Shown here piece by piece: positions 5,685 to 47,499 of a stretch of 64,000 bases of DNA; within the stretch, counting starts at the first letter, position 1; every line of letters starts with the position of its first letter. The notes under the pieces are model-generated. The model was not told the DNA's origin. It saw only the letters and a list, made by a program, of their open reading frames with translations, and ran no database searches. The DNA lies in NCBI GenBank assembly GCA_947085265.1, contig CAMTVR010000012.1:178180-242179 (forward strand), written 5' to 3'. Position numbers and translations under genes: made by a program. Source of the stretch: an uncultured Bacillus sp. (lineage in GTDB: Bacteria; Bacillota; Bacilli; ZCTH02-B2).

Positions 5685-5713
5685 TTGACATTCCCTGGTA
5701 AAAAGCATAGAAT
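5685..5713 (+). promoter_or_regulatory. sigma-A type promoter TTGACA-17nt-TAGAAT
   Basis: -35 TTGACA at 5685-5690, 17-nt spacer, -10 TAGAAT at 5708-5713. Confidence 0.55.
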
Positions 5714-5788
5714 GAGACTGCAATCTCATGGTGCTGCCTGGTCTTCGCGATTCATACCTGCATGTGATGGGAATGGAAGCAATAAAGT

Positions 5789-14761: not shown

Positions 14762-14845
14762 ATGTCGCCAACAAGTTGTGGCAGGATGATTCACCCATGA
14801 CAGATGCCCTGCATACAATTGTACTGAAGAATTGTATGGAGGAGG

Positions 14846-15488: not shown

Positions 15489-15604
15489 ACGGGGCATTCT
15501 TTTTTTACATACTTTAGAATGTAGCCATTCACCATTAACCCTGGTTCAGAAGCATTCCCTTTAGCTTCTAGCTCCACCAGGAGAAGCCGAAGCATCACTC
15601 TCCT

Positions 15605-27764: not shown

Positions 27765-28619
27765 TTATCCATGCCCATAACCGTAACCCGGGTGTGTGCG
27801 GATCCACTCGCGCAATTCTGCGAGTGCTTCCTGATACGGCGTGACGGCGTAGGTGAAATCGGAGCGGGTGTTGACCAAGCTCTTGTCGGCGGTGATCCTG
27901 TCGCAGGGGCGTATCGTGATGTCTTCACGGCCAAACGCCTCCTTGAGCCAAAGCAGCAGCTGATACTTGGATATTTTCCCAGGCGTGGCCAGATGCACCA
28001 ATCCGGCAATCACCGGTTTTCGCAGCACCCAGTCGATCGCCTTGGCTAATTCCAGCGTGGTCACGCCGTTCCAGAATGCCCTGCGGTAGCCCTGCACTAC
28101 CCCTTTCTGATTCATGAACCAGTGGAACAAGCCGATGCCGTCCTTGAGTTCAGGACCGATGATTGAGGTGCGTATGGTGAGGTGGCCGCCATACGTCACC
28201 TCTCCCAAGCTTTTGGTCTTCGCGTAAGCGGTCATGCCGTCGGTGACATCTTCTTCCGTGTATTCTCCCCGCTTGCCGGAAAAGACGCAGTCCGTGCTGA
28301 TGTGGATCAGCCGAAAACCCATTTTTTCGCCAAGACGGGCCACCTGGTGGGGAAACAAGCTGTTGACGCAAATTGCGTCGAAGAGACGGCGGGAAGCCTC
28401 TTCGTTGAGAAGGCCTGTCGCATTGATCACGACATCGGGACGGACGAGGCGGATCGCCTGGGCCACTGCCGCTTGATCGGTGACGTCCAAACTGATTGCA
28501 TGAGGATCATCTGATTTTTCCCGCACGGTATGCCACACGTCATGCCGGCCGCATTCCGACAGGTGCGCCCGAATGACGTGCCCGGCCATGCCGTTGCCGC
28601 CAAACACCAGGACCCTCAA
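27765..28619 (-). CDS. RmlD-type SDR reductase; FnlB/Cap5F-like candidate (UDP-2-acetamido-2,6-dideoxy-L-hexose pathway reductase)
   Basis: RmlD substrate-binding-domain family; TTG start at 28619 overlaps the upstream stop as TTGA with GAGAGGGGGA RBS; the 60 upstream codons of the ORF track overlap the previous gene and are rejected. Confidence 0.7.
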   Translation of the reverse strand: MRVLVFGGNGMAGHVIRAHLSECGRHDVWHTVREKSDDPHAISLDVTDQAAVAQAIRLVRPDVVINATGLLNEEASRRLFDAICVNSLFPHQVARLGEKMGFRLIHISTDCVFSGKRGEYTEEDVTDGMTAYAKTKSLGEVTYGGHLTIRTSIIGPELKDGIGLFHWFMNQKGVVQGYRRAFWNGVTTLELAKAIDWVLRKPVIAGLVHLATPGKISKYQLLLWLKEAFGREDITIRPCDRITADKSLVNTRSDFTYAVTPYQEALAELREWIRTHPGYGYGHG

Positions 28620-30691: not shown

Positions 30692-30744
30692 ATCCAATGA
30701 GCCTCCTTTCCTCACTTTCCTTCCTCCAAAGTTCAAGACTGAGC

Positions 30745-31458
30745 TCATTCCGCTTCTTTCGGGAGCAAGAGGTGTTTCCACTTGGGAAATTCCTCATTGG
30801 CCCTCGTGAAATCCGCCGGCTGGCCGATGTCCATCCAGAACGCATCATTTTCATAATGCCGAACCGTCTCTCCTTTTTCCAAAAGCGCTTGGATCAGATC
30901 TGGGATGTCGAAAAACTGCCGTTCCGGGATGTACTCAAGAATGAGTGGATCCATCATGTAGATCCCCATACTGACATGGGCATTGCGCAGCGGTTTCTCG
31001 ATGAATCGGATGACACGTTCTCCCTCCGTCTCCAGCACACCAAGGTTGATGGGCACGTGTTTTTGTTGCGATGCGACGGTCATGATGCTGCGTCCGGACG
31101 TGTGAAACTCCCAGAACGCACGAAACGACAATGTGGTCAGTATATCGCAGTTGATGAGCAAAAACGGCTCGGACAAGTGGGTGAGCGTCTTAAGCGGTCC
31201 TGCCGTCCCGCGGGGTTCCGTTTCCACCTGATAGGCAATCGAGACGCTCCACGCACTCCCGTCGCCAAAATAGCTCTGGATCAAGGAAGCCCGATAACCG
31301 CATGCCATTGTGATGTTGGTGAAACCGTGGTATTGGAGCTGTTTCACGATGATTTCCAGAATCGGCTGATCTCCTACCGGCAAAAGTCCTTTGGGCAGCA
31401 CCTTGGTGTACGGCATCATGCGTACGCCTCTGCCCCCGGTCATGATGACAGCATCCAC
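30745..31458 (-). CDS. sugar-1-phosphate nucleotidyltransferase (NTP_transferase; short RmlA/RfbF/HddC-like)
   Basis: MTGGRGVRMMPYTKVLPKGLLPV nucleotidyltransferase signature; GTG start 15 nt after the upstream stop with GAGAGGGGGAA RBS. Confidence 0.8.
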   Translation of the reverse strand: MDAVIMTGGRGVRMMPYTKVLPKGLLPVGDQPILEIIVKQLQYHGFTNITMACGYRASLIQSYFGDGSAWSVSIAYQVETEPRGTAGPLKTLTHLSEPFLLINCDILTTLSFRAFWEFHTSGRSIMTVASQQKHVPINLGVLETEGERVIRFIEKPLRNAHVSMGIYMMDPLILEYIPERQFFDIPDLIQALLEKGETVRHYENDAFWMDIGQPADFTRANEEFPKWKHLLLPKEAE

Positions 31459-31473
31459 GGTTGATTCCCCCTC

Positions 31474-32466
31474 TCACACGATGTACTCGGTCGGACGCTG
31501 ATATAAGTGCTTGTGGCGCATCATCCAGTCAATCGTCCGCTGCAGGCCTTCTTCCAGAGTCACAGATGGCTTCCATCCCAAGACGACTGCTGCCTTGCTG
31601 CTGTCAGAAAACAGCCGATCCACTTCGCTTTTTTTCGGCCGTAGCCGGTTTTGATCCACCCGCACCGGCAAATCCCGGCCCATTCGCTCGAGAATCATGC
31701 GGGCCAAATCCCGCACCGAGATTTCAAACCCGGAACCGACGTTGAACAAATCGCCGACCGCTTTGTCCTCTTCGGCCGCGTATAGAAACGCCCGCACGGT
31801 ATCTTCCACAAAAGTGTAATCTCGTGTTGGCGACAAGTTTCCCAATACTATTTCCGAGCGGTGAAGGGCCTGGTTGATAATCGTCGGAATGACCGCCCGC
31901 ATGGACTGATGCGGACCGTAAACGTTGAACGGGCGAATGGTTACCACTGGCGTGTTGTACGAACAGTGGAAGCTCTCTACAAGCTTGTCGGCCGCTATTT
32001 TGCTTGCCGAATACGGAGACTGTCCCTGAAGCGGATGGGTTTCGTCCATTGGCACGTAACGTGCAGTGCCGTACACCTCGCTCGTCGACGTGTGTACCAT
32101 GCGGGGAATGCCCAGATCCCGGACCGCCTGGAGCACGTGCAAGGTGCCGAGCACATTGGTCTCGACGACTTCTGTGGGGTTACGGTAAGAATACGGGATG
32201 GCGATCAGCGCGCCAAGGTGAAACACCGCATCGACACCCTTCACAGCCTGATAAACCGCTTGAGGGTCCCGCAAATCTCCCTTGACAACCTCAATTTCCT
32301 TGAGTTGATCGGCCGGCAGATGCTCGAGAAACCCGAGCGTATTGAGCGAATGGTAGCGCACAAACGCGCGGACGGTCGCGCCAGACATGACGAGCAGCTG
32401 AGTCAGGTGGCTGCCGATAAAACCAGATGACCCCGTCACCAGCACTGTTTTTCTTCTGATGTCCAT
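31474..32466 (-). CDS. NAD-dependent epimerase/dehydratase family protein (extended SDR, RmlB-like sugar 4,6-dehydratase or 4-epimerase)
   Basis: TGSSGFIGSHL Rossmann motif, TSTSEVYG, YSASK catalytic Tyr/Lys; start ATG 32466; the ORF track N-terminal extension is rejected. Confidence 0.75.
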   Translation of the reverse strand: MDIRRKTVLVTGSSGFIGSHLTQLLVMSGATVRAFVRYHSLNTLGFLEHLPADQLKEIEVVKGDLRDPQAVYQAVKGVDAVFHLGALIAIPYSYRNPTEVVETNVLGTLHVLQAVRDLGIPRMVHTSTSEVYGTARYVPMDETHPLQGQSPYSASKIAADKLVESFHCSYNTPVVTIRPFNVYGPHQSMRAVIPTIINQALHRSEIVLGNLSPTRDYTFVEDTVRAFLYAAEEDKAVGDLFNVGSGFEISVRDLARMILERMGRDLPVRVDQNRLRPKKSEVDRLFSDSSKAAVVLGWKPSVTLEEGLQRTIDWMMRHKHLYQRPTEYIV

Positions 32467-32512
32467 CTTCTTTCCCAACCCTTCTGATGCAGTTGTTCTT
32501 GATGCCTGTGTA

Positions 32513-34494
<1,982 letters not shown>

Positions 34495-35859
34495 TTACCC
34501 TTTTTGTATTCCATTCCGGATCTCTTCCCAGGACAAAGCGAGATGAACCGTATCTTCTTCCGACTGGTTTCCGAATTGCACTTCGATGATGTCCAGATCT
34601 TTGGAAGCTATGACGGCGTGCCTGGCTCCGGCCGGAAGTTCCCATACAGCGCCCGGACAAATGGAGAAAATCCGTCCGTTCAAGACCAATTCCCCCTCTC
34701 CGGCCGCCACGATCCACACCTTGCGGCAATGCGTGTGATACCGATAGCTGAGATGCTTACCCGCGCGGAGATGGATTTTCCGGGTCAATGCTTCATGATT
34801 CTGATCATCCAATACGCGAGACCAGCCCCAGCCCCGTTCCTCATACTTCACGCGTTTGGCAATCGCTGGTGCGGCATTTTTCACGAGGTTGCTCTTGGCT
34901 TTGTCCGCGACCAGGATTCCGTCCGGGCTCGCAGCAACCACCACATCCGAAACGCCAATCGTGACCACAGGAATTTCCAATTCGTTCAGAATGTGCACAT
35001 TCTTGCAGTCCACGCATTTTGCAAACGCTTCGTCTGTTCCGTCCATCTCCTGCGTGATTTCATTCCAGGTGCCCAAATCTTTCCAAAAACCAGAATAAGG
35101 AATCACCACCGCCTGACTGGCGTTTTCAACAATTTCATAATCAAAACTGATTTTTGGCAAATTCCCATATTCCTGCAGCATTTTTTCATAGTCCGTGGGC
35201 CACCCTCTTTTGGCCAATTCTTGGATCACATCACCCAACCGGAAGGCAAAAATGCCGCTGTTCCACAAGGCACATTGCGTGAAAAGCTGGTGCATCTCCC
35301 GCTCCTGCGGTTTTTCCTTAAAATACTGCACTTTTTGGTAGGCGATTTCAGAAGCCAGGTCCGTCTGTTCCCCGGAGGGAACAATGTAGCCGTATTGGGA
35401 TGACGGGTAGGACGGCGCTATGCCAATCAGGGCAAGTGCCGCGCCCGAGTGATGAATCACTTCCTCCAATTGTTTCATCTTCACAAAAAACGCATCGTCC
35501 GCATGAAAATCGACAGGCATCACTGTGATTACATCCGAACAATCGACACGCTGTTTTGAATAAAAATACGTTGCCGCCAATGCGATTGCCGGGAATGTAT
35601 CCCGTGGTTCAGGCTCAATGATCAGTGGCACTTCAGTTCCCAACTGATCGTGCACGAGATCGACATGCGTTTGCGACGTTGCAATGTACGCATCACTGGA
35701 CGGCAGATGTTCCTCCAGTTTTCTCCAGGTCCGTTGAACCATGGACTCTTTTTCGCCTTTTGGATGATGGAATATTTTTAAAAACGGTTTGGAACGCAGA
35801 TGATGGGAGAATGGCCACAACCTTTTTCCTGATCCCCCCGCAAGGAGCACCAATTTCAT
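34495..35859 (-). CDS. manC: mannose-1-phosphate guanylyltransferase / mannose-6-phosphate isomerase (type II PMI-GMP, ManC/XanB)
   Basis: LAGGSGKRLWP nucleotidyltransferase N-terminus plus C-terminal cupin (PMI) domain; ATG 35859 with GAGGTG RBS. Confidence 0.85.
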   Translation of the reverse strand: MKLVLLAGGSGKRLWPFSHHLRSKPFLKIFHHPKGEKESMVQRTWRKLEEHLPSSDAYIATSQTHVDLVHDQLGTEVPLIIEPEPRDTFPAIALAATYFYSKQRVDCSDVITVMPVDFHADDAFFVKMKQLEEVIHHSGAALALIGIAPSYPSSQYGYIVPSGEQTDLASEIAYQKVQYFKEKPQEREMHQLFTQCALWNSGIFAFRLGDVIQELAKRGWPTDYEKMLQEYGNLPKISFDYEIVENASQAVVIPYSGFWKDLGTWNEITQEMDGTDEAFAKCVDCKNVHILNELEIPVVTIGVSDVVVAASPDGILVADKAKSNLVKNAAPAIAKRVKYEERGWGWSRVLDDQNHEALTRKIHLRAGKHLSYRYHTHCRKVWIVAAGEGELVLNGRIFSICPGAVWELPAGARHAVIASKDLDIIEVQFGNQSEEDTVHLALSWEEIRNGIQKG

Positions 35860-36075
35860 TGTCCGCACCTCTATCCCCTTCGCTTTTACGACCATCATAT
35901 GTACAGGTGTGAAAAGGTGATCTATCCCACCCCGCAAAAATGGTCGTCTTTCCCGAGATCTCGTGCGGCATGTGCAACCGTCCAATCCAAACAAGCGGCA
36001 GGATCATATGGTAAAAGTGTTCACGCGCCAAGTTGATATGGCAAGAACGTCAAAAAACCTGGGAAGGGGATGAAC

Positions 36076-36921
36076 ATGGGCGGTTTATGGACAGACGAGG
36101 AGATCCTTGAAGCCATCCATCAGCGCAGATGGTATCACAAAATACCCATTCGTCCCGGCATCACAACCCCCGGCAATGATTACGACAGATTGTGGGACAT
36201 TATCCGTGCCGCCAGGAAACATATTGACTACACAGGAAAAAGAGTGCTCGACATCGCCAGTTTTGATGGCTTGTGGGCGTTTGAAGCCGAGCGGCTGGGG
36301 GCGAGCTTTGTCGTTGCCACGGATTGCTATCAGCCGGCTTTTGCGAATTTCGCGTTATGCAAGGAGATCCTAAAAAGCAATGTCGTTCCACTATACAACG
36401 TCTCCCCGTATTCCTTGTGGGACGGACTGAAAGTGATTCTGATGGATGACGAATCGACACCGCTTCCTTATCCGCAGCAAGTTCGCCACAACTTGTTCGA
36501 TATTGTTCAGCACCTCGGCCTGTTATATCACGTGCGGGATCCTCTGATGACTTTGTCTCAATCACGGAGCGTCATCAAGACAGGAGGGTTCTTGCTTCTG
36601 GAAACAGCGGCCATTTTGAACCCTGGAGAATCATTGATGGTGTACAACGGTCCGCCGGAGAACAAAAAACGCATTTACCTGGATGTGACCACGTGGTGGA
36701 TCCCGACCATCCAGTGTGTGATGGAAATGCTGAAAACCACACTGTTTGAGCCAATGCCGGAAACCATTCACATTCTTGAAGATCAGCCAATCAGCGGGTA
36801 TCCGCTCGGACGTATGGCCGTCGTTGCAAAAGCCGTTCCCGGGCATGCGATTGCCCAAGATACCTACAAAGAGCTGTTGCGCACCTTCCGCAATCCCGGC
36901 CTGGTCCCGGAATACCTGTAA
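36076..36921 (+). CDS. DUF1698/CmoB-like class I methyltransferase-fold protein
   Basis: block similarity to CmoB (WYH.I.....TPG; GKRVLD...; ...LYH...PL; LLETxxI), but the glycine-rich SAM loop is degenerate (DIASFDG instead of GxGxG); ATG at 36070 or 36076 after GGGAAGGGG. Confidence 0.55.
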   Translation: MGGLWTDEEILEAIHQRRWYHKIPIRPGITTPGNDYDRLWDIIRAARKHIDYTGKRVLDIASFDGLWAFEAERLGASFVVATDCYQPAFANFALCKEILKSNVVPLYNVSPYSLWDGLKVILMDDESTPLPYPQQVRHNLFDIVQHLGLLYHVRDPLMTLSQSRSVIKTGGFLLLETAAILNPGESLMVYNGPPENKKRIYLDVTTWWIPTIQCVMEMLKTTLFEPMPETIHILEDQPISGYPLGRMAVVAKAVPGHAIAQDTYKELLRTFRNPGLVPEYL

Positions 36922-36976
36922 CGACCAACCATCATGCGGCAAACGCCGGGCGGGAATGAAGCGACCGCACTGATTT

Positions 36977-38188
36977 TTGGCAAGCGAGGTGTGGCCTTTG
37001 TCTGCTCCTTTGGTTAGCGTCATTACCACATCGTATCACCGCGCCCGGTTTATCCGGGAGACGATCGAAAGCGTTTTGCAGCAGGATTATCCTTTCATTG
37101 AACACATCGTGGTGGACGGAGGATCGACGGACGGCACGGTGGAGATCCTGCAACAATACAGCCAACGCGGCGACCGTTTTCGTTTCGTCTCCGAACCGGA
37201 CCGTGGGCAGTCGCACGCGGTGAACAAGGGACTGGCCATGGCGCGGGGCGAGATCATCGGGTGGCTGAATTCGGACGACACTTATGTGCCGGGAGCCGTA
37301 AAAAAAGCGGTGCAGGCGTTTCAGCGCCATCCGGACTGGGCGATGATCCACGGCAGGGCATTTTTCATCGATGAGAACGGTCATGGACAAGGGCCAGTCG
37401 GTTATACCGCCCCCATCGACTTCGACAAATTGTTCCACGGATGTTTTGTCTCCCATCCGACAGTTTTTATCAGGAAAAGCGTGTTCCAACAAATCGGGGG
37501 AGCGGATGAAACCCTCAAATTTTGCTTGGATTACGATGTGTGGATTCGGATCGCCAGGAACCACGTCATCGGGTTTATCGACGATTTTCTCGCCAATTAC
37601 AGAGTTCATCGCGGCTCACAGACAAACCGCGAATGGAAAACAGTCGGCATTCCCGAGATCTTGAAAATCATCGCAAGGCATTACGGCACGGTTTCAAAAA
37701 CCTGGATGTCGATCTATTTAAGTGAAATGGAGGATAGAAACGTTTTTCAGATTTTGCGTCGCTTTCAAGCTGCCTCGTTGTTCGGCAATCCGCCGAAAAT
37801 CACAAGGATGAACAGGCACGAAGATTTCAGTGTTCCTCCCTTGTTCCGGATCACATTGGCATCGGATCCTGGATTCCCGATGAAAATGCTGCTTGTCAAA
37901 GGCAGGATGCTGGCTTCACGAATGTATGATGCGCACAAGTTCACGTGCACCGTACTGGTAAATGGACAAACGGTCAGGAATTACGACATCACAACATCCC
38001 CGTTCGTTTTTGAAATCCCGCTTCCCCCGGATCGCGCGGTCAATCAAGTGGACATTCTTTCCTCAAAGTTCTCCATGGCGGACCACTCCGACGCGAGAAA
38101 GCGGAGCTTTGTTGCGGAGGAGGTGATCCCCCTCTCCCGCACCGAAGCCGAGATTTATCGCACGCATCTTAAACCTCTCCTGGTTTAA
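36977..38188 (+). CDS. family 2 glycosyltransferase (GT-A fold) with a roughly 180-aa C-terminal domain of unknown function; paralog A
   Basis: SVITTSY...DGGSTDGT...NSDD motifs; highly similar to the next gene. Confidence 0.8.
   Translation: MASEVWPLSAPLVSVITTSYHRARFIRETIESVLQQDYPFIEHIVVDGGSTDGTVEILQQYSQRGDRFRFVSEPDRGQSHAVNKGLAMARGEIIGWLNSDDTYVPGAVKKAVQAFQRHPDWAMIHGRAFFIDENGHGQGPVGYTAPIDFDKLFHGCFVSHPTVFIRKSVFQQIGGADETLKFCLDYDVWIRIARNHVIGFIDDFLANYRVHRGSQTNREWKTVGIPEILKIIARHYGTVSKTWMSIYLSEMEDRNVFQILRRFQAASLFGNPPKITRMNRHEDFSVPPLFRITLASDPGFPMKMLLVKGRMLASRMYDAHKFTCTVLVNGQTVRNYDITTSPFVFEIPLPPDRAVNQVDILSSKFSMADHSDARKRSFVAEEVIPLSRTEAEIYRTHLKPLLV
37045..37297 (+). repeat. direct repeat copy 1 (5' region of GT2 paralog A); near-identical to 38351-38603
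   Basis: long stretches of identical DNA (for example gcgttttgcagcaggattatcctttcattgaacacatcgtgg...ggaggatcgacggacggcacggtgga) shared between the two tandem genes. Confidence 0.8.
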
Positions 38189-38299
38189 TGCGGTGAACAC
38201 GCGTTTTTCGGGAAGCGACGAATGGGAACGCGCGCGCCAGCCGGCGCCATTGGAGGTGCCCGCTTAACCCACTAAACTGAAAGCGATGGAGTGATCGAG

Positions 38300-39616
38300 A
38301 TGGCCCATCTTCCGCTGGTGAGCATCATCACGCCCAGCTACAACCGAAGCCGTTTTATCCGGGAGACGGTCGTGAGCGTTTTGCAGCAGGATTATCCTTT
38401 TATTGAACACATCGTGGTCGACGGAGGATCGACGGACGGCACGGTGGAAATTCTGCAACAATACAGCCAACACGGCGACAGGTTTCGCTATGTCTCGGAA
38501 CCGGACCGCGGCCAGTCGCACGCGATCAACAAGGGGCTGGCCATGTCTCGGGGCGAGATCATCGGGTGGCTGAATTCGGACGATACGTATCTGCCAGGCG
38601 CCATCCGCAAGGCCGTGCGCGCGCTGCTGCAGCATCCCCACTGGGCGATGGTGCATGGCTTGGCTTACGTGACGGACGAGCGGAGCCAGCGGCGGTCCGC
38701 TTATTCGGTGGAACCGGTGGATTACCAGAAATTGTTTCATGGTTGCCGCATCTGCCAGCCCACCGCCTTTATTCGCAAGGATGTCTTTCAACAGCTGGGG
38801 GGAGTGGATGAGTCACTGCACTTTTGCATGGATTATGATCTCTGGATCCGGATCGCCAAACGGCACACCATCGGGTTTCTCGATGAATATTTGGCCACTG
38901 CCAGAGTCCACCCGTCAGCCAAAAGCGTGACGCATTGGAAATCCATCGGCCTTCCCGAGATCCTGCAGACCATTTCCAAGCATTACGGAACCGTCTCCAA
39001 TGATTGGCTGCAATTGTTCCTGTCGCAACACGCGGATAAAGACATTTTCTGGTTGTTAAACCGCTTCAAGGATTATTCAGTTTTTGGAATTCCGCCAAAA
39101 ATCAGCAACATAAACCGATATGCCGATTTCTGGGTTCCCGCCCGATTGGTCATGACCGTGGAGGCGGATCCGGGGTTTCCCTTGCACGCCTTGCTGCTCA
39201 AGGGGAGGGTTCCCCTGTCCGCCTTCCCGTCCGCCCACAGGAACAAATATCGGCTCACTGTTCTTTTAAACCGTAAAATCACCGGCACCTTTTTCATTGA
39301 CCAGGAATCCTTCACTCTGGAAGTCCCTCTTCATACTTCCCAGTCATCCAACCACATTGAAATGATGTCATCCCACTTCATCCCTTCCGGGCATCCCCTG
39401 AACCCTCATCAGACGCCGCTCAGCTTTCTCGCCGACGACGTCATTCCTCTTTCCCGCAAGGAAGCGGAATTTTACCGCGTCTATCAGCGCTCTCCATACC
39501 TGGCTGCAGCTTGGATCTGGCAAAACAGGCAGCCTGTTCCTTGCCCGCCATCGCTTCAAGAAAATCCCTTTCGGAGCGGAACTGGAAGCACCCACGACGG
39601 GGAGGACACTGGATGA
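38300..39616 (+). CDS. family 2 glycosyltransferase with divergent C-terminal extension; paralog B
   Basis: N-terminal roughly 100 aa about 90% identical to paralog A, then diverging; ATG 38300 after GGAGTG RBS. Confidence 0.8.
   Translation: MAHLPLVSIITPSYNRSRFIRETVVSVLQQDYPFIEHIVVDGGSTDGTVEILQQYSQHGDRFRYVSEPDRGQSHAINKGLAMSRGEIIGWLNSDDTYLPGAIRKAVRALLQHPHWAMVHGLAYVTDERSQRRSAYSVEPVDYQKLFHGCRICQPTAFIRKDVFQQLGGVDESLHFCMDYDLWIRIAKRHTIGFLDEYLATARVHPSAKSVTHWKSIGLPEILQTISKHYGTVSNDWLQLFLSQHADKDIFWLLNRFKDYSVFGIPPKISNINRYADFWVPARLVMTVEADPGFPLHALLLKGRVPLSAFPSAHRNKYRLTVLLNRKITGTFFIDQESFTLEVPLHTSQSSNHIEMMSSHFIPSGHPLNPHQTPLSFLADDVIPLSRKEAEFYRVYQRSPYLAAAWIWQNRQPVPCPPSLQENPFRSGTGSTHDGEDTG
38351..38603 (+). 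repeat. direct repeat copy 2 (5' region of GT2 paralog B)
   Basis: see copy 1. Confidence 0.8.
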
Positions 39617-40629
39617 AAATTGTCATTCCAATGGGCTACCTGCACCTGGGCGGCGGGTGCAAAGTGCTGGTTGAGACCGCAAATGCGCTGGCCGCGCGCG
39701 GGCACGAGGTGGAACTGTGCCCGTTGCGGGTGCTGACGCAGATGTACCCTGTTCGCTGCAAACTGACCCCCATTCCCGTGCTGTCGAGGGAGTACATCCC
39801 TTACGGGGACATTGTTTTGCCCAACTTTTACACCACGTTTCGCCCCGCTTATTCCGCCTGGCCCGCCCAGACCGTGCGGCTCAGTCTGGGGTTTGAACCG
39901 TACTGGGTGCCCGACCCGAAGGAGGCGCTGTGGACGTACCGGCAAGGCGTGCCGATCCTCTCCATCTCCCGCTGGCTGGATGAGCAGATCCGCAAGCATG
40001 CGGGGCAACGCAGCACAGTGGTCAATCCGGGTGTCGATCTGACCGTATTCCACCCCGGTCCGAAATTGAAGACGTTCCGAACAGATAAACCAAAAGTCAT
40101 CATGTACATCGCCCGCGATCCCGGCGCGGGGTATCAATTGAAAGGGTTTCACGATTTCGTCGCCAGTCTGCAAATATTGAAAAACTGGTACCCTGATTCC
40201 TTTGTCGTGAACCTCGTGTGCCCCGAAAAGAAACTCGGCGTGCCGGGCATTCCGCATCAGGTTTATTCGCCGGCAAGCGACGCGGAAATGGCGCAACTGT
40301 ATCGGGAGGCCGATATGTTTGTCTCGTCGTCCTGGTTTGAAGGGTACTCCCTTCCCCCGCTGGAAGCAATGGCCTGCGGAACACCGGTGGCGACCACCAA
40401 TTCCGGCGGCGTGCTGGACTACTGCACCCATCTGCAAAACGGCTACATCGTGCCGCCGCGCAACCCGGTATTGCTCGCCGAGGGGATGCACGCCGTGCTC
40501 ACCAATGGTACCCTGTACAACAAGCTGGTGATCGGGGGGCTGCAGACAGCGAAGCGGTTTTCCAAAGACCGTTTTGAACGAGAAATTGTCACTGCCCTGG
40601 AAGCCATTTTTGAGGCGCGAATGCGCTGA
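39613..40629 (+). CDS. family 4 glycosyltransferase (GT-B, Glycos_transf_1)
   Basis: EGYSLPPLEAMACGTPV (EX7E motif); ATG 39613 overlaps the previous stop as ATGA. Confidence 0.8.
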   Translation: MKIVIPMGYLHLGGGCKVLVETANALAARGHEVELCPLRVLTQMYPVRCKLTPIPVLSREYIPYGDIVLPNFYTTFRPAYSAWPAQTVRLSLGFEPYWVPDPKEALWTYRQGVPILSISRWLDEQIRKHAGQRSTVVNPGVDLTVFHPGPKLKTFRTDKPKVIMYIARDPGAGYQLKGFHDFVASLQILKNWYPDSFVVNLVCPEKKLGVPGIPHQVYSPASDAEMAQLYREADMFVSSSWFEGYSLPPLEAMACGTPVATTNSGGVLDYCTHLQNGYIVPPRNPVLLAEGMHAVLTNGTLYNKLVIGGLQTAKRFSKDRFEREIVTALEAIFEARMR

Positions 40630-40686
40630 TTCCACAGGATCGGGAAATCCTTGAGAACTGCGCTCATGGGAGGGAGGGATTTTTCT

Positions 40687-41388
40687 GTGCGCATTGCACC
40701 GAAGGTTTCGGTGGTCATCCCGTTTTACAACTGCGCGTACGTGAATCAAGCCATTGAAAGCGCCCTGAACCAGAGTTACCCCCACATTGAGGTGATTGTC
40801 GTCAACGACGGTTCGACTCGGCACGTCGAGAAAATTACGCCGTACGTTCACCGGATAAGGTACATCGAAAAGGCCAACGGAGGCACGGCCAGCGCCCTGA
40901 ACGCAGGAATCCGCAACGCTTCCGGAACGTATTTCGCCTGGCTGAGTTCGGACGATTTTTACGACAGGCACAAAATTGCCAGCCAGATAGCGTTCATGCA
41001 ATCCGCCAGTGCCTTCGCCAGCCACACCGCTTTCTACTTCATAGACGCACACAATCGTATACGCCGCCCCACTCCCTACACCGTTTTTGGAAACCGGATC
41101 GATTTTTTTGAACAAATGAAACATGGTTGCCTGATCAACGGTTCCACCGTCATGCTCAGCATGGACGTGTTCGACCACGCAGGACTGTTCGACGAATCGC
41201 TCCGCTATGCGCATGATTACGAATTCTGGCTGCGCGTTCTGATGAGATACGACTTCCTTTACATGCCGCAACCTCTACTCTACTACCGCGTCCACAGTGA
41301 GATGGGATCAGGCAAATTCGCGCCGCAGCTGGCTAGAGAAACGCTGCTCGTCCGGCAAAAATACCAAAACATGGTTATTCATCCGTAA
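40687..41388 (+). CDS. family 2 glycosyltransferase
   Basis: VSVVIPFYNCAYVNQAIESALNQSYPHIEVIVVNDGS...LSSDD; GTG 40687 after GGGAGGGAGGG RBS (the ORF track start at 40651 is also possible). Confidence 0.75.
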   Translation: MRIAPKVSVVIPFYNCAYVNQAIESALNQSYPHIEVIVVNDGSTRHVEKITPYVHRIRYIEKANGGTASALNAGIRNASGTYFAWLSSDDFYDRHKIASQIAFMQSASAFASHTAFYFIDAHNRIRRPTPYTVFGNRIDFFEQMKHGCLINGSTVMLSMDVFDHAGLFDESLRYAHDYEFWLRVLMRYDFLYMPQPLLYYRVHSEMGSGKFAPQLARETLLVRQKYQNMVIHP

Positions 41389-41411
41389 GGCGCCTACAGG
41401 CGTCACTATCA

Positions 41412-41759
41412 TTACTCCAAGTATAGCTTTGTCTCCACGACGGCCGCCGCGCCGGCCGCGGCCAGCACGACCAGGATGGGAAAAGCGGCCGGCACCAAGA
41501 AGTACAAGGCAACGATCGCTGTGGAAGACCAGATGCCGACACACCAGTGACAGCTGAGGAGTATCCCTAGCCAGCGGCGAAAGCCTGAACCCTTCAGGTG
41601 GATGTGCCGTACCACCTGGCCGGAAGGGTCGGCTTCATAGGAAACGCTGAAAAACGGTTCACGCAAAAACGACATGATGTCGTCATAAACAATCAAATGT
41701 GTCAAACGAAAGCTGGCCAATACGATAATCACGAGATGGAGCCACGTCATCTCAAACAT
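41412..41759 (-). CDS. DUF1360-family small membrane protein
   Basis: about 115 aa, two to three TM helices, HLIVYDDI motif typical of Bacillus DUF1360 proteins; ATG 41759 with GAGGAAG RBS. Confidence 0.5.
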   Translation of the reverse strand: MFEMTWLHLVIIVLASFRLTHLIVYDDIMSFLREPFFSVSYEADPSGQVVRHIHLKGSGFRRWLGILLSCHWCVGIWSSTAIVALYFLVPAAFPILVVLAAAGAAAVVETKLYLE

Positions 41760-41862
41760 CAGTTCCACTTCCTCGTTAAGATTTGTTCCTGATTCACGCG
41801 CGATGCAAAAGCCGGACATGCCTGAAAAATTCACAGGCCTGTGCGCGCCGTTTTTTGTTTCG

Positions 41863-43140
41863 TCAGCACGACACCGCGATCCGATTGTTGGAGGAAAATT
41901 GCACCTGCTGTTCGCGGAAAAAGATGAATCCTTCGATCGTCACGCTGTTGCCGGATTCCGGTGTCATCACGGTCATCTGGAAGTTTTGGAAAGGATGGAC
42001 TTCCTTTGGCGCGATACGCACCGGCTGAACCGGAGCGATCCAGTACTCCCCCCGCTCCTTTGCCTTCTCAAACCAGTCTTCCTCCAGAAATCTCCAGCCC
42101 CTTACACCCATAGGACTTTGCACGCCGAGCGTCTCCACCATGTTGGCCGGCAAAATCTGCCCGCCCAGTTTGACGCTGCCAGGGGGATCGGCGCGCAAGC
42201 AAACGACCGGGTTGATCAATGCTTCCGTTCCTGTATTTTTGACATATAGGTTTCCGAAGATCAAAAACGGCTTACCCTCGATGTCGGAGCGGAGCACGGT
42301 GTAATCAAAAAACACCTCGGCAGCCAACTCTCCCTGTTCCGGCAGCCGGCTTGCTGCTTCGTCGATCGGCTCGCCGACCGGCTTCTCCCAGGCACTGGGC
42401 AACCTCCGTGTTTCCCTCTCCCCCTTCTCGAGCATCGGGGGTGTTGCCGCCAACATCCGCAAAACAGCGGGAGTCAGACAGGAGAGTGGCGAGATTTGCT
42501 GTTCTGTCAGCAAGTAGCGAAGGATGCCGGACGCGAAAAAGAAGGCTATCCGCTCTGCCCACTCCTTCCAGGCCGTTTGCGCCATGCTGGTCGGAAGCTG
42601 GCAGCAAACCTCGACAAATGCGTGGAACGGCTGGCACCCGCGCCGCCATTCGGTTGCGCACGGTATCCCCGCGCTCTTCCATTCTGTCTCCAGACAGTGC
42701 ACCAATGCTTGGTTGCACCGGCTTTCATGCTGAATGATAGTCATTCGGGGCGGAAGCCCGATGTCTGCCTTTTCGATGGTAAATTGTACGCATACATCCT
42801 TCTGTTCCGGCCAGTCCAACCGGTTCGGCGACAGAGCGACGCTCACCCCAGCGGCGGTGAGAAATCGTTCCGTCAGTGCCAAAATGTCCCGTTCATGTGG
42901 ATGGAAATCGGTTGCGGCGGGAACCTGTCGGTGCCTATCCTCCAGCACACACATTTTCCCTTTGAGCCCCGGCGCGAGAACAATCCTGTTTTCTTTTGGC
43001 TCCCACTGAAAGTGAAACCCGCTTTCTTGACAAAACAGACGAAAGGCAGGCAGTGATGTGAAAGGGATCGTCCCACACGTTTGACCAGCGTAAAAAACCG
43101 CAACATCATCCATCCCAAATCCCCCTTCTTTATCGGTCAT
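41863..43140 (-). CDS. hypothetical protein (425 aa, Cys-containing central region, no recognisable domain)
   Basis: long ORF with GAGGGAGGGG RBS 7 nt before the ATG at 43140; co-directional with the DUF1360 gene. Confidence 0.55.
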   Translation of the reverse strand: MTDKEGGFGMDDVAVFYAGQTCGTIPFTSLPAFRLFCQESGFHFQWEPKENRIVLAPGLKGKMCVLEDRHRQVPAATDFHPHERDILALTERFLTAAGVSVALSPNRLDWPEQKDVCVQFTIEKADIGLPPRMTIIQHESRCNQALVHCLETEWKSAGIPCATEWRRGCQPFHAFVEVCCQLPTSMAQTAWKEWAERIAFFFASGILRYLLTEQQISPLSCLTPAVLRMLAATPPMLEKGERETRRLPSAWEKPVGEPIDEAASRLPEQGELAAEVFFDYTVLRSDIEGKPFLIFGNLYVKNTGTEALINPVVCLRADPPGSVKLGGQILPANMVETLGVQSPMGVRGWRFLEEDWFEKAKERGEYWIAPVQPVRIAPKEVHPFQNFQMTVMTPESGNSVTIEGFIFFREQQVQFSSNNRIAVSC

Positions 43141-43250
43141 TCCGCATCCCCTCCCTCTTCCCCTCTTGCTTCATAGGCTGCTACGTGTTCATTGTATGTA
43201 CGCCCATCAGAAAGAGTGCCGGTCGGTGCGAATGCCCGCGGCAAACGGGT

Positions 43251-43277
43251 ACCTGCGCTCGGTTTTGGCATAGGATG
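43251..43277 (+). promoter_or_regulatory. possible mother-cell sigma-K-like promoter (AC-16nt-CATAGGATG) upstream of the ppGalNAc-T-like gene
   Basis: matches AC-N16/17-CATANNNTA except for the final base; by sequence only. Confidence 0.25.
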
Positions 43278-43299
43278 TCAGGAAGGAAGGAGTGAGCCA

Positions 43300-44181
43300 A
43301 TGTCTGACGGACACATGCCTTTTGTTTCCTTAATCATTCCGGCCAAAAACGAAGGGAATAACGTGCGTGCGACCGTTGAATCGGCATTACGCGTAAAAAC
43401 CCACCACCCTTTTGAGATCATCATCGTGGATGATGGTTCTACAGACGGATGCTGCGCGTTTTTGGCATCCGGAGAAAACGAACAGATCAAATTAATCACG
43501 ACTCAGGGAATTGGGGCTGCCCCTGCCAGAAACCTGGGTGCTGAGCATTCACTGGGAGAATACCTCATCTTTTGCGACGCCCACTTGTTCTTCCAGGACT
43601 ATTGGATGGATCAGTTGCTGGGACTGATCCGGACGGGACAAGCGAACGCCGTGTCCCCCGGCATCGCTTCGACAAACCGGCCGAATCTCGTCGGGTACGG
43701 CCAGACACTGAACCGCATGTTGGGCGTACAGTGGAACCGGCAAATATCCGTTCCCGCACCTACGGCGATTCTGCCGGGCGGATGTTTGGCCATGACGAGA
43801 GACGTCTTCTTCGATGTGGGCGGATTTGATCGGGGATTTCAGGTTTGGGGGTTTGAAGATGTGGAGATCTCGCTCAAGCTGTGGCTATTTGGCTACCAGT
43901 GCTACGTGCAGCCGGCAGTCAAGGTGTTCCATCTGTTTCGCGAATCTCACCCGTACCGCGTGACATTCGACCACGTATACTACAACATGCTTCGGATGGC
44001 CTACAGCCATTTTAACGAATCTCGGATCGCCTCTTGCCGCAGCTTGATTCACCACGCAGATCCAGCCCGGATCGAGGAAGCTGTATTGGCTGGTGGCGTG
44101 CTGGAACAGCGGAAACGCTACTTCGCGCGCCGGAAGTACGACGACGAATGGTTCATGCGCCGGTTCGGAATCCCGTTCTGA
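43300..44181 (+). CDS. GT-A glycosyltransferase resembling the catalytic domain of polypeptide N-acetylgalactosaminyltransferases (GT27-like / GT2; no lectin domain)
   Basis: block-wise match to the ppGalNAc-T catalytic domain: EIIIVDDGS, FCDAH (DxH), Gal/GalNAc-T motif WGFEDVEISLKLWLFGYQ (compare WGGENLEISFRVWQCGG), and HLFR (compare HVFR). Confidence 0.7.
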   Translation: MSDGHMPFVSLIIPAKNEGNNVRATVESALRVKTHHPFEIIIVDDGSTDGCCAFLASGENEQIKLITTQGIGAAPARNLGAEHSLGEYLIFCDAHLFFQDYWMDQLLGLIRTGQANAVSPGIASTNRPNLVGYGQTLNRMLGVQWNRQISVPAPTAILPGGCLAMTRDVFFDVGGFDRGFQVWGFEDVEISLKLWLFGYQCYVQPAVKVFHLFRESHPYRVTFDHVYYNMLRMAYSHFNESRIASCRSLIHHADPARIEEAVLAGGVLEQRKRYFARRKYDDEWFMRRFGIPF

Positions 44182-44311
44182 GAACACTGCGGATGGGAAA
44201 ATATACCTGGAATATTCACCTAAAAAATAGGCGTTTGTTTACAAGCAAAATGCCCTCCTCAACATAGTATGTATTGCGTAAAACACCACCTAGGAAAGGG
44301 AGGGTTCATAA

Positions 44312-45571
44312 TTGGTAAGGCAAATCAGACCCATCAAGGGTTTTCAAGTTCCGACGCCGACGCCGACCGCACCCGCGCCGATTCCGAACAATCTGCAAGA
44401 AGAATGCATCCGCGTTCAAAAGGTGTACGACTGGGTCGTGACCGCGAACCGGGATCAAAACAAAGTTCAAATTCCTAGCGACTGTCTGGCTCTTGTCAAC
44501 GAAGCCATCCAGGCCGGGCAAAATATCACTGTTCAATGTGTGGAGCCGGTCATCCCTTCACCATTCCCGATCATTCCGAAACCGCAGCCGACGCAGGGAC
44601 TCGACTTCTCCTGCCGGATCATCAGCATTCGCCGGGAAAACATCGTTATCGGGGGCAACGTCGTCCGGGTCGGCATTGTCCGCTTTCTCTTCAGTGCTAC
44701 GCTGCTGATCCGTGTTTTTGCCGACGGCACGCTGTTATGCGAATTTCCAGCCACTGTCCAGTTCGACGATGAAATCGTGCTCTGCCTGCCAGAACCGCTC
44801 GACGAAGACAACATCCTCTGCCGGATTACCGCGGTTGAGTGCACGCCGCTGGAGCCCATCCTTGGCGGCCAAATTCTGATTGACGTGGTCATTTGCAAAG
44901 AAATCCAGGTGGAAGCGGAAGTGAAGCTGGAGGTATTGGCAAAATTTTGCCAGCCTCGCCCAGCCGACATACCCGTACCGACACCCACGCCGCCAGCATT
45001 CCACTGCCCACCAGTCATCTTCCCGGCACAATGCCCAGAGATCTTCCCGCGTCAAAACTGCGACTGCCAGGCAACTGCCAACGTCATTCTCACCAATTCG
45101 ACCGTGCTGTTTGACGGCGTAGCGGAAGTCGGCACGGAACAATTAATAGCCGAGATCTGCCCGAACTGCAATCCGGGAGACAGTACCTTCTCTTATACCT
45201 TTGTCGACACGATCTCACCCACACCGACACCCACGCCTACCGACGAAGTCCCTGGCGATTTCAGCTTCGTCTTCACACCGGTACAAATCAGTACACCTGT
45301 TTGCTCAGCGATCCCTGGCGGCGGCCTGCAGGCCGTGGTCACCGGTACAGGAACCCGCACATTCACCGCAACCGGCACACAGGATACCCTTGCCTACGAG
45401 CTAACGCTGCGTGAACTGCCCGGCCTCACGGACGAATACCGCCTCATCCTGCGCAACGCGCTGGGTGCCATCGTCTTCGACACCGGGTTCAAGACAGTTC
45501 CGGACGCCAACCTCATCGTCCAAGACTGCATCACCTTCCCGGATGTCATTCCGGCGCCATCTGTGCCCTAA
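44312..45571 (+). CDS. cysteine-rich three-module protein with Thr-Pro linkers (TPTPT), no signal peptide; candidate glycoprotein substrate / spore-surface structural protein
   Basis: TTG start 7 nt after GGAAAGGGAGGG RBS; three TP-rich linkers (VPTPTPTAPAPIP, IPVPTPTPP, ISPTPTPTPTDE) separate Cys-rich modules; own terminator downstream. Confidence 0.65.
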   Translation: MVRQIRPIKGFQVPTPTPTAPAPIPNNLQEECIRVQKVYDWVVTANRDQNKVQIPSDCLALVNEAIQAGQNITVQCVEPVIPSPFPIIPKPQPTQGLDFSCRIISIRRENIVIGGNVVRVGIVRFLFSATLLIRVFADGTLLCEFPATVQFDDEIVLCLPEPLDEDNILCRITAVECTPLEPILGGQILIDVVICKEIQVEAEVKLEVLAKFCQPRPADIPVPTPTPPAFHCPPVIFPAQCPEIFPRQNCDCQATANVILTNSTVLFDGVAEVGTEQLIAEICPNCNPGDSTFSYTFVDTISPTPTPTPTDEVPGDFSFVFTPVQISTPVCSAIPGGGLQAVVTGTGTRTFTATGTQDTLAYELTLRELPGLTDEYRLILRNALGAIVFDTGFKTVPDANLIVQDCITFPDVIPAPSVP

Positions 45572-45594
45572 TCCAAATCACGCGCACAAACATG

Positions 45595-45630
45595 CGGGAG
45601 AACAACAGATTCTCCCGTATTTTCATTTCT
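45595..45630 (+). terminator. rho-independent terminator after the Cys-rich protein gene
   Basis: CGGGAGA-loop-TCTCCCG stem followed by TATTTTCATTTCT. Confidence 0.7.
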
Positions 45631-45741
45631 GTGTACCAAGAAACAAGAAAAGAGAAGGTTTACCCGTTGTCTTTATGCACATTTTCCTCCCTGTTACATA
45701 TGTCTATAGGGAAAAGCACACGGAATGGAGGAAAATATGCG

Positions 45742-47499
45742 ATGTCACTAAAAAAGAAACCCTCCGGAAAATTGAACCTGATTAAAGAACAGATGACCAT
45801 GCTAAAACGGCAAAGGGCTTACTATCAAACAAAAGCGACGCAATACAGCGAGGAACTCAATGATCTGAAAGAAAGATTGAGAGAAAGTATCCAACGCGAT
45901 CATGAAACCAGCAAACACATGGAGCAGTTAAACGCCGCGCTCATGCGATACCAAGACAAAGAAAAAGAATGGAACGGTGTTGTTGAACAACTATACAACA
46001 AAATCAACGACTTTGAAAAAAGGGAGGCCGATTACCTGTACTTGCTTGAACAAAAAGAAAAATCCATTGCCCATTATCAAAAGAAGCTGGGCACATGGGA
46101 AAAAAGGTTTGAAGAATTAAATGAAAAACTCAAAAAGTTTTCAGAATCGCCACATACGCCAGATTACCAACAGTTGCTGGCGCAAAAAGACGAATCGCTC
46201 GCCCATTATCAGGCGCTTGAAGCAGAATGGAACCAAGCATTGGAAAAACTGAACCAGAAGATTGAGAAGCAAAGGCAAAAGGAGGAAGAATACCGCCAAC
46301 AACTTGCCCAGCTCCACCAACAACTTGCCAATTACGAGGAAAAAGAAGCGGAAAACAGCCGACTCTTGGAACAAACGGAGTTGGCGTACCGAAAACTTCT
46401 TGACCAAAAAGACGAAGAACTACGTCAGCTGACCGAACAAAAAAAAGACCTGATCCGGCACCTTGAAGCTCAACTATCTGAATCGCGGCAACAGCTTGCC
46501 CAGCTCAACCAGCGCCTCGCGGCCTGCCAGGAAAAAGAAACCGAATATAGCCACCTTTTGGGGCAAACAGAGGCGAGATACAGAAAGCTGATTGAGCAAA
46601 AGGAAGCAGAATTTCTCCAGCAATTGCAGCAAAAAAACGAACAGCATCGGCAATTGATTGATCAAAAGGACCATCTGATTCAACGCTTGGAAGCCCTTCA
46701 AGCCGAATCGGAACAGCGCCTCGCCGACCTCCACCAACAACTTGCCAATTACCAGGAAAAAGAATCTGAAACGCTTAAATGGCTAGGTGAAACGGGTGAA
46801 AAACACAGGCAGCTGCTCACAAAAAAAGAGACGGAATTTAGGAAACTGATCGAACAGAAGGACAAGGAATACCGTCAGATCCTGGAACAAAAGGAAACAG
46901 AATACCTCCAGTTCCTGGAGGAAAAAGGGAAGGAATATCGGCAACTTTTGGAGCAAAGGGACGAGGAATATCGCAAGCTGCTGAAAGAAAAGGACAGGAT
47001 GATTGCCCGTTTTGAAGCGCGAGAAGAAGAACTTGAGCAACTTCTGCGGCAAAAAGAGCAGACGATTGCCCGCTATCAAGCCATGGCACTGGAATGGAAA
47101 CAGAATCTGCGTTCTCCCATTCACGAGGAAGAACACTTGGAACAGCTGAAAGAGAACCAAGAGAGCTTATCCGAATACCGGAAACTGCTGCAACAAAAAG
47201 ACGAAGTGATTGCACAGTACGAAGAAAAGGAGCTGGAATGGAAACAGGCGATGGAACAACTGCAACAGCGAATCAGGGAACTGGAAGAGAAAGAGGAGAA
47301 ATACAAGAAGGCGATCAGTGATTATCAGGAAAAGGAGGCAAAATACAAAAAAGCTTTGGAGCAAAACAGCTTTGTGGAACCAAAGGAAGTTACCGTTTCC
47401 ACACTGCTCAACGGCGCTGTCTATGGCAGCCATGCAACGTTTCTCAAGCCGCATCACACCTCTCAGTCCGCACCGTTTAATCCGTTTAAAAACATGTAG
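45742..47499 (+). CDS. long coiled-coil repeat protein (Q/E/K-rich; roughly 11-aa repeats of type K-E/D-x-E-Y-R-x-L-L-E-Q)
   Basis: ATG 45742 10 nt after GGAGGAAAA; about 586 aa with heptad-like periodicity; repetitive at both DNA and protein level. Confidence 0.65.
   Translation: MSLKKKPSGKLNLIKEQMTMLKRQRAYYQTKATQYSEELNDLKERLRESIQRDHETSKHMEQLNAALMRYQDKEKEWNGVVEQLYNKINDFEKREADYLYLLEQKEKSIAHYQKKLGTWEKRFEELNEKLKKFSESPHTPDYQQLLAQKDESLAHYQALEAEWNQALEKLNQKIEKQRQKEEEYRQQLAQLHQQLANYEEKEAENSRLLEQTELAYRKLLDQKDEELRQLTEQKKDLIRHLEAQLSESRQQLAQLNQRLAACQEKETEYSHLLGQTEARYRKLIEQKEAEFLQQLQQKNEQHRQLIDQKDHLIQRLEALQAESEQRLADLHQQLANYQEKESETLKWLGETGEKHRQLLTKKETEFRKLIEQKDKEYRQILEQKETEYLQFLEEKGKEYRQLLEQRDEEYRKLLKEKDRMIARFEAREEELEQLLRQKEQTIARYQAMALEWKQNLRSPIHEEEHLEQLKENQESLSEYRKLLQQKDEVIAQYEEKELEWKQAMEQLQQRIRELEEKEEKYKKAISDYQEKEAKYKKALEQNSFVEPKEVTVSTLLNGAVYGSHATFLKPHHTSQSAPFNPFKNM
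46100..47330 (+). repeat. internal tandem repeat region of the coiled-coil gene
   Basis: recurring DNA units (for example caacaacttgccaattac[cg]aggaaaaagaa at about 46321 and about 46738; repeated gaacaaaagga... units); produces the many spurious antisense ORFs listed in the ORF track. Confidence 0.7.

Follow-up and report, generated by a model that had tools for sequence, protein, structure and literature searches.

What does the short DNA between two divergent genes in a glycosylation island do, and what might the genes on either side of it contribute together? The question is raised by positions 43141–43299 of the window, i.e. the whole 64,000-nucleotide (nt) stretch analyzed here, from contig CAMTVR010000012.1 of an uncultured Bacillus sp., where a gap of 159 base pairs (bp) separates the divergent genes for a 425-amino-acid (aa) protein and a GT2 glycosyltransferase. 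We consider it likely, on the elements described below, that this gap is a compact two-way promoter region for mother-cell RNA polymerase in sporulation, pointing to sigma-K and driving a spore-surface module in which the 425-aa protein would act as partner of a spore-coat protein of the BMQ_0737 family (BMQ-family). The four genes on which this reading turns are the following.

41412–41762, minus strand: gene for a DUF1360/YjcA-like membrane protein of 116 aa (PF07098, E = 3.5e-32).
41863–43140, minus strand: open reading frame (ORF) of the 425-aa protein ('U425').
43300–44181, plus strand: gene for a GT2 glycosyltransferase, polypeptide-GalNAc-transferase-like, of 293 aa (Pfam Glycos_transf_2 and Glyco_transf_7C).
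44312–45571, plus strand: gene for a Cys-rich BMQ_0737-family morphogenetic spore-coat protein of 419 aa with 18 Cys (NF052457, E = 1.4e-29).

Four promoter-like elements lie within the gap, two on each strand.

43249–43253, plus strand: -35 box GTACC facing the GT2 gene (its AC at 43251–43252), spaced AC-N16-CATA (GTACC-N15-CATA).
43269–43277, plus strand: -10 box CATAGGATG facing the GT2 gene.
43215–43219, minus strand: -35 box GCACT with a sigma-K-type C at position 4, spaced AC-N17-CATA (GCACT-N16-CATA).
43190–43198, minus strand: -10 box CATACAATG facing the 425-aa/DUF1360 gene pair.

An initial annotation of this DNA had reported a sigma-K-like motif, AC-16 nt-CATAGGATG, ahead of the GT2 gene. 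The motif is present exactly as described (43251–43277) and upstream of that gene, but its -10 box ends 22 nt before the start codon, which is the ATG at 43300 and not 43301, instead of the roughly 25 nt given. Overlooked at the time was the mirror promoter on the minus strand, AC-N17-CATACAATG from 43217 to 43190, which fits the sigma-K consensus better than the GT2-facing motif and resembles the box 5' of cotE in the window. Both -35 elements carry the AC and a C at position 4, 16–17 nt from CATA, and CATAGGATG, CATACAATG, and the related CATAGTATG ahead of the BMQ-family gene each match CATAnnnTA, a -10 element shared with sigma-E, at 8 of 9 bases, with G as the last base. A sigma-70 promoter scan of the gap returned no candidate, and the sole nearby match lies inside the 425-aa ORF. 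On the reading we favor, the minus-strand promoter (GCACT, CATACAATG) would drive the 425-aa gene and then, by read-through, the DUF1360/YjcA-like gene, and the plus-strand promoter (GTACC, CATAGGATG) would drive the GT2 gene.

A motif match by itself means little, because the count across the window is near chance expectation: AC-N16/17-CATAnnnT[AG] occurs 4 times on the two strands, against 3.0 ± 1.7 in Markov-1 simulations, and 12 matches to the looser AC-N16/17-CATAnnnT compare with 7.7 ± 2.7 expected. Two of the four stricter matches sit back to back in the one 159-bp gap. What stands above chance is this placement, together with the conservation of the boxes, which in related genomes keep a fixed distance to the start codons. 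With a profile built on the family of the 425-aa protein, 39 genome loci (numbered L001 onward) were recovered from Brevibacillus, Aneurinibacillus, Thermoactinomycetaceae, and several Bacillaceae; the window's own genome is absent from them, and the nearest by neighboring genes is L008, a Bacillota metagenome-assembled genome.

When 24 distinct gaps of the Brevibacillaceae type are aligned, the only conserved blocks are the two ribosome sites, the two CATA-type -10 boxes, and the two -35 boxes, i.e. ATTGTATGAATGCCC (GGGCATT-CATACAAT on the opposite strand), AAGTGA (TCACTT on the opposite strand), CGTTCC, and GCATACCATGG. Neither the sequence nor the length of the DNA separating the blocks is constant, and B. 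panacihumi has a gap of only 100 bp that retains these elements and nothing else. Toward the 425-aa gene, the window and all 27 Brevibacillaceae/Thermoactinomycetaceae loci have a -10 box CATAnnnT in the corresponding position; the window and 26 of these loci have the complete promoter, xCAC-N16/17-CATAnnnT, and many orthologues have the full CATACAATA. Toward the GT2 gene, the -10 box is CATA[CG]nATG, 29–35 nt before the start codon in all Brevibacillaceae loci, with variants such as CATACCCTA (B. panacihumi group) and CATATAATG (Aneurinibacillus danicus), and this conservation supports the earlier view of the plus-strand CATAGGATG as a real -10 element. The -35 box on this side reads G[TC]ACC in the window, L008, L017, and L018 and GTTCC or GTGCC in other Brevibacillus, with the C at position 4 kept in all Brevibacillus loci; in the Aneurinibacillus locus L009, the -35 facing GT2 falls outside the pattern and has no position-4 C. 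In Bacillaceae, the divergent gene next to the 425-aa homologue is the BMQ-family gene itself, and five loci there carry ATACC-N16-CATAnnnTA, which fits the sigma-K pattern. Taken over all loci compared, the elements recur in three families.

Which mother-cell factor would read these promoters depends on a single base, since sigma-E and sigma-K promoters have identical -10 elements and differ at -35 position 4, which is C for sigma-K and T for sigma-E (Eichenberger et al. 2004, PMC517825). Both promoters of the gap point to sigma-K because they carry C at this discriminating position, and by the single-base rule the window promoters are most likely of the sigma-K type. An internal control is provided by the window's own cotE gene.

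14846–15424: cotE (Pfam CotE, E = 8.5e-66).

It is preceded by TTCACC in an AC-N17-CATACAATT arrangement (14793–14819, plus strand), 27 nt before the start codon, and cotE P2 of B. subtilis is sigma-K-dependent (PMC517825). A reverse-oriented CATACAAT also lies before cotE, at 14838–14831.

An alternative is that the promoters are specific to the mother cell but read by sigma-E, i.e. early, or by sigma-E and sigma-K together, such that the module would not be specifically late. We consider this unlikely, although several observations favor it: CATACAAT is also the textbook sigma-E -10 element, the two factors have this element in common, and some promoters are read by both (PMC517825); B. subtilis yjcA, whose name is borne by relatives of the DUF1360 protein, is sigma-E-controlled (PMC517825); and in six Bacillaceae loci the promoter of the 425-aa orthologue has the sigma-E-type T, with xCAT in the -35 box at the same distance. 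By contrast, the position-4 C recurs in the 425-aa promoter of the window and of 26 of the 27 Brevibacillaceae/Thermoactinomycetaceae loci, and in every GT2-facing promoter of Brevibacillus; the partner family encodes an outermost-layer protein (PMC4656864); and a GerE-like box ahead of the BMQ-family gene is consistent with late expression. The designation 'mother cell' is nonetheless firmer than 'late', because sigma-K and sigma-E share the -10 box. The initial annotation's placement of the island in the late mother-cell regulon thus holds for conserved mother-cell-type promoters with the -35 C, but its 'late' is not separable from sigma-E.

The six Bacillaceae loci (L014, L020, L023, L033, L034, and L036) read TCAT where Brevibacillaceae read TCAC, roughly 30–60 nt before position 6001 (about 4220 in L020). 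From this difference, CAC in one family and CAT in the other, a shift in timing between the lineages is predicted; a single promoter base may have rewired the 425-aa gene between sigma-E (Bacillaceae, CAT) and sigma-K (Brevibacillaceae, CAC). The AT-richer genomes of Bacillaceae could explain CAT equally well.

A third promoter candidate, also mentioned in the initial annotation, precedes the BMQ-family gene.

44225–44236, plus strand: GerE-like box AAATAGGCGTTT, an exact RWWTRGGYN2YY match about 48 nt 5' of the predicted transcription start.
44263–44271, plus strand: -10 box CATAGTATG before the BMQ_0737-family gene.

The box is present and recurs before BMQ_0737-family genes, but there is no AC 16–17 nt upstream of it, so it is a -10 box without a proper -35 element. 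At this position most Brevibacillus loci have CATAGTATG, L008 has CATAGGATG, and the B. panacihumi group has CATAGAATG; the whole pre-BMQ region is strongly conserved in Brevibacillus, as CCTAAAAAATRGGCATTCGTTGACAAGCAAA, about 14 nt, and CATAGTATG. Five distant loci with short forms of the 425-aa family extend the pattern: CATAGTATG is identical in three of them (Halobacillus, Terrilactibacillus, and one metagenome contig), 51–59 nt before the BMQ_0737-family gene, and the remaining two have CATAGTATA and CATAAAATA. The GerE consensus used is the one tabulated in PMC2695774. The window and 15 of 23 Brevibacillaceae GT2-BMQ gaps have an exact match (AAATRGGCnnYY) in the corresponding position, a frequency about ten times the background of these loci, which are orthologous and thus not independent events; counted across the whole window, the GerE consensus shows no enrichment. 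GerE-assisted sigma-K promoters of B. subtilis coat genes combine a good -10 element and a poor -35 element with a GerE box upstream. The layout before the BMQ-family gene resembles these, its GerE box being putative, and the gene would be expressed from its own CATAGTATG promoter.

Both minus-strand genes proposed in the initial annotation are real ORFs with ribosome sites. The 425-aa gene could also start at 43113, where a separate AAGGGGGA ribosome site is available; this position corresponds to the start of most homologues. The 116-aa protein, whose gene has a GAGGAAGTGG ribosome site, scores 110.9 bits against the DUF1360 model (cutoff 21) over profile positions 1–100 of 102 and has three hydrophobic segments. 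Co-transcription of the two genes is plausible, because no terminator-like site was found in the 100-nt gap between them, and we regard it as probable; the DUF1360 gene lies directly 3' of the 425-aa gene in the window, L008, L009, L013, and L016–L019. A profile search found no DUF1360 gene within 6 kb in the Bacillaceae loci, so the link is limited to certain lineages.

Some DUF1360 relatives carry the UniRef name 'Sporulation protein YjcA', and the matches obtained here are from Bacillales; a literature search placed DUF1360 only in mycobacteria and their phages. In B. subtilis, yjcA is a mother-cell gene under sigma-E control, numbered adjacent to cotV/cotW (PMC517825). In mesophilic Brevibacillus, the 425-aa and DUF1360 genes have between them a gene on the other strand for a 367-aa protein (L001 7476–8579, minus strand, and equivalents), which by eye has an N-terminal hydrophobic signal-like segment and resembles a peptidoglycan-binding or SCP-type secreted protein. 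The DUF1360 gene of these species is preceded by a conserved block, GTTTGTCGC...CAATGGTACTAAA, without a CATA box.

What, then, would the 425-aa protein do? Neither the protein nor its family profile has a sequence match in Pfam, NCBIfam, or the PDB, its 59 homologues are all labelled 'hypothetical', and an exhaustive profile search returned 260 clusters at 50% identity; the family is undescribed and restricted to sporeformers. Its AlphaFold model (predicted local distance difference test, pLDDT, of 81) divides into four parts.

Residues 12–56: small N-terminal domain (AlphaFold model).
42496–42972, minus strand, residues 57–215: Amidase_3-like fold, or pseudo-amidase (predicted structure).
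Between the amidase-like domain and the beta-sandwich: disordered linker of variable length (predicted structure).
41866–42339, minus strand, residues 268–425: C-terminal beta-sandwich, the signature domain of the family (predicted structure).

The earlier remark that the protein has no recognizable catalytic motif agrees with this model, in which an amidase-like fold has lost its metal ligands. The predicted structure has the Amidase_3 fold, but the Amidase_3 sequence model and the ligands are both missing: residues 57–215 contain no His column at 50% or above and no conserved zinc ligands or catalytic Glu, and the putative ligand positions, assigned by the order of secondary structure and not by residue-level superposition, are G/S, R/F, and Q. 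E83 alone is retained, by 30 of 39 sequences. Filing the protein as an amidase was rejected on these ligand positions and the lack of such a His column, and the amidase-like part is best viewed, from its residues, as a pseudo-enzyme. The beta-sandwich is modelled with a pLDDT of 90.8 and has only generic structural neighbors; of the 53 columns with at least 90% conservation, 43 lie within it. No signal peptide or N-terminal hydrophobic segment was found, and because such a segment is missing, both synthesis and use of the protein probably take place in the mother-cell cytoplasm.

It could be argued that the protein is instead an active or regulatory cell-wall enzyme, i.e. an amidase of the cortex or mother-cell wall or an activator or inhibitor of one, and not a structural coat partner. 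The predicted fold notwithstanding, we find this very improbable: the amidase-like domain has no conserved His, the position of the catalytic Glu is Q in 25 of 39 sequences, Pfam Amidase_3 does not match, a signal peptide is missing, and no folded part is less conserved than the amidase-like half, which some relatives lack or have replaced by a coiled coil, with the beta-sandwich as the conserved part of the family.

The case for a structural partner comes from the gene neighborhood. Of 38 assessable loci, 36 have a BMQ-family gene upstream of the 425-aa homologue, on the opposite strand; L009 ends with its contig and is not assessable, and L032 and L038 have no BMQ-family gene. Many members of the family are short (170–340 aa) and consist of the beta-sandwich only, and some have it behind a coiled coil. 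Five such short members from different lineages all lie directly 3', on the same strand, of an NF052457 gene (5 of 5; E values from 1e-41 to 1e-62). In Halobacillus (L041), a divergent 363-aa gene was considered as the BMQ partner and proved wrong, the partner being the 254-aa gene upstream on the same strand. Because two differing gene arrangements share the same neighbor, there is good evidence, as far as gene order can tell, for a functional link between the 425-aa family and the BMQ_0737 family, mechanism aside.

As to the mechanism, the 425-aa protein would be made in the mother cell and deposited on the spore, where it would serve the BMQ_0737-family protein as a structural or assembly partner, contacting it through the C-terminal beta-sandwich, with the amidase-like domain as a non-catalytic scaffold. 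More specifically, and only tentatively, the beta-sandwich may be a dedicated, hitherto undescribed partner domain of BMQ_0737-family coat proteins, which Brevibacillaceae, Thermoactinomycetaceae, and several Bacillaceae would require for assembling or anchoring their outermost spore layer. The namesake BMQ_0737 is an outermost-layer protein of B. megaterium QM B1551 spores, according to the passages of PMC4656864 and PMC4674009 that cite Manetsberger et al. 2014. The window's own BMQ-family protein scores 103.7 bits against NF052457 (cutoff 71) over profile positions 2–198 of 199, and it contains two (PT)3-4 stretches, also present in about 29 orthologues.

The GT2 protein offers these stretches a possible modifying enzyme. 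Its nearest solved relatives are GalNAc-T2, T10, and T1, with E = 2.5e-21 to GalNAc-T2 over residues 6–220, such that the initial label of a polypeptide GalNAc-transferase-like enzyme was well chosen. The translation contains CDAH (DxH) and WGFEDVEISLKLW, which we take to be motifs of the polypeptide GalNAc-transferase type; at 293 aa the protein is a catalytic domain only and ends after it, without a C-terminal ricin-type lectin domain. This suggests that GT2 may O-glycosylate the (PT)n stretches of the BMQ-family protein to give a mucin-like spore-surface glycoprotein. Together with the sugar-nucleotide and glycosyltransferase genes at 27.7–41.4 kb, the module would build and glycosylate the outermost spore layer.

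Several points weigh against the two-way sigma-K-type promoter region and the module that it would drive. Consensus matches are at chance level window-wide, the final base of both -10 boxes in the gap is G where the consensus has A, and the predicted GT2 leader is very short, at about 16 nt. The closest genome locus, L008, keeps the -10 box before the 425-aa gene without a -35 match, and on the GT2 side the A of the 'AC' (position 3) is not conserved in mesophilic Brevibacillus. The opposite-strand gene that separates DUF1360 from the 425-aa gene in those species means that the operon is not universal, and the evidence for the protein partnership is gene neighborhood only. The related loci are orthologous, and their agreement therefore does not amount to independent observations; moreover, sequence cannot separate sigma-E from sigma-K with certainty. 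What the sequences show directly is the elements and their conservation, the gene neighborhoods, and the predicted folds, whereas the sigma factor, the timing, a part played by GerE, co-transcription, and the protein partnership are inferences.

Least likely of all is that the CATA blocks are sites of a dedicated regulator or another DNA feature, with transcription starting elsewhere and the likeness to sigma-K coincidental: a sigma-K consensus no commoner than chance in the window, CATAGTATG being itself a 9-bp palindrome, the TRGGCATTC block that adjoins the -10 box in Brevibacillus, and the variable GT2-facing -35 box would suit such an explanation, but it is opposed by the two-block geometry with its 16–17 nt spacing and fixed start-codon distance in both directions, by the same pattern preceding cotE, by a gap without an alternative sigma-70-like promoter, and by the smallest gaps (100 bp), which leave nothing besides these elements.

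The plus-strand genes continue beyond the BMQ-family gene with two further features.

45595–45617, plus strand: terminator-like hairpin and T run, an 11-pair stem followed by TTTTCATTTCT, directly 3' of the BMQ-family gene.
45742–47499, plus strand: gene for a coiled-coil protein with weak SMC-type coiled-coil matches only.

The coiled-coil ORF as listed (45592) overlaps the hairpin, and its likely start is the ATG at 45742, behind GGAATGGAGGAAAA; no clear CATA box was found upstream of this ATG. The gene is conserved 3' of the BMQ-family gene in Brevibacillaceae.

These genes belong to an island at 27.7–47.5 kb, between lexA and tkt, set in a window backbone of cinA-recA-rny-ymdB...cotE-mutSL-miaA-spoVK-lexA. 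The order within the island is sugar-nucleotide genes, a methyltransferase gene, four glycosyltransferase genes, the DUF1360 and 425-aa genes, GT2, the BMQ-family gene, and the coiled-coil gene. Lying between lexA/thioredoxin-reductase-like genes on one side and MFS/tkt genes on the other, the island (window 28000–46000) has a G+C content of 0.51–0.58 against 0.45–0.51 in its flanks, and either acquisition or differing codon usage could account for the higher value. Compared with L008, the BMQ-family protein is 85% identical, GT2 74%, and DUF1360 72%, against only 42% for the 425-aa protein (L008 6001–7236), and the latter evolves far more rapidly than its neighbors. A search of the whole window against Rfam matched no RNA family.

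A second back-to-back pair of CATA boxes within the island was read by eye at 35893–35901 (minus strand) and 35995–36003 (plus strand): CATATGATG lies 42 nt 5' of the likely ATG (35859) of a mannose-1-phosphate guanylyltransferase-like gene, and CATATGGTA lies 75 nt 5' of the methyltransferase ATG (36070). If these boxes are real, the sugar-nucleotide and glycosyltransferase operons would likewise be under mother-cell control. Elsewhere, the sole exact AC-N17-CATAnnnTA match in the window, ACGGGGCATTCTTTTTTTACATACTTTA at 15489–15516 (plus strand), precedes the gene for a 473-aa protein of the COOH-NH2 ligase type (PF14395) between cotE and mutS; it contains GGGCATTC, a block that also adjoins Brevibacillus promoters. 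An AC-N16-CATAGAATG match at 5688–5714 (plus strand), 119 nt 5' of rny (RNase Y), is probably due to chance, consistent with the expected background.

What is new here is the map of a bidirectional promoter, a pseudo-amidase/beta-sandwich family as the constant neighbor of BMQ_0737-family genes, and a predicted sigma-E/sigma-K difference between lineages. The map, i.e. three promoters and one GerE-like box, is testable and covers a spore-surface glycosylation island of poorly studied sporeformers. A family with neither a Pfam model nor an annotation gains a context and a likely role, as BMQ_0737 coat-protein partner, and the orthologous promoters with CAT or CAC offer a natural test of the single-base rule for sigma-E and sigma-K. 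The view of sporulation is unchanged, with known principles extended to new genes.

On these predictions, the system is an ordinary one, a late mother-cell cluster for the coat and spore-surface glycosylation, comparable to cgeAB/cgeCDE. In B. subtilis, cgeAB and cgeCDE are divergent operons with a short shared gap, dependent on sigma-K and GerE, with a GT2 gene on one side and a role in maturation or glycosylation of the outermost spore layer. The window differs in its BMQ_0737-family, pseudo-amidase/beta-sandwich, and DUF1360 proteins, and its regulation is a prediction only. Like the sigma-K and sigma-E promoters of B. subtilis (PMC517825), those of the window have a CATA-type -10 box, a -35 C at a distance of 16–17 nt, short leaders, and positions before coat genes, whereas their -10 boxes end in G and the GT2-facing -35 box is degenerate in many relatives.

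Similar likenesses and differences hold for the proteins. YjcA of B. subtilis belongs to the same DUF1360 Pfam family as the 116-aa protein and is encoded by a mother-cell gene beside outermost-layer genes; yjcA, however, is expressed from sigma-E, and the DUF1360 gene of the window is probably co-transcribed from a sigma-K-type promoter. Unlike the Amidase_3 amidases CwlD, CwlV, Ami1, and AmiC, the 425-aa protein has no sequence match to the family, no zinc ligands, no catalytic Glu, and no export signal. Finally, it is the 419-aa neighbor, and not the 425-aa protein, that falls in NF052457, the family of BMQ_0737 of B. megaterium QM B1551, and compared with the 199-position model of that family it is longer and carries the (PT)n stretches.

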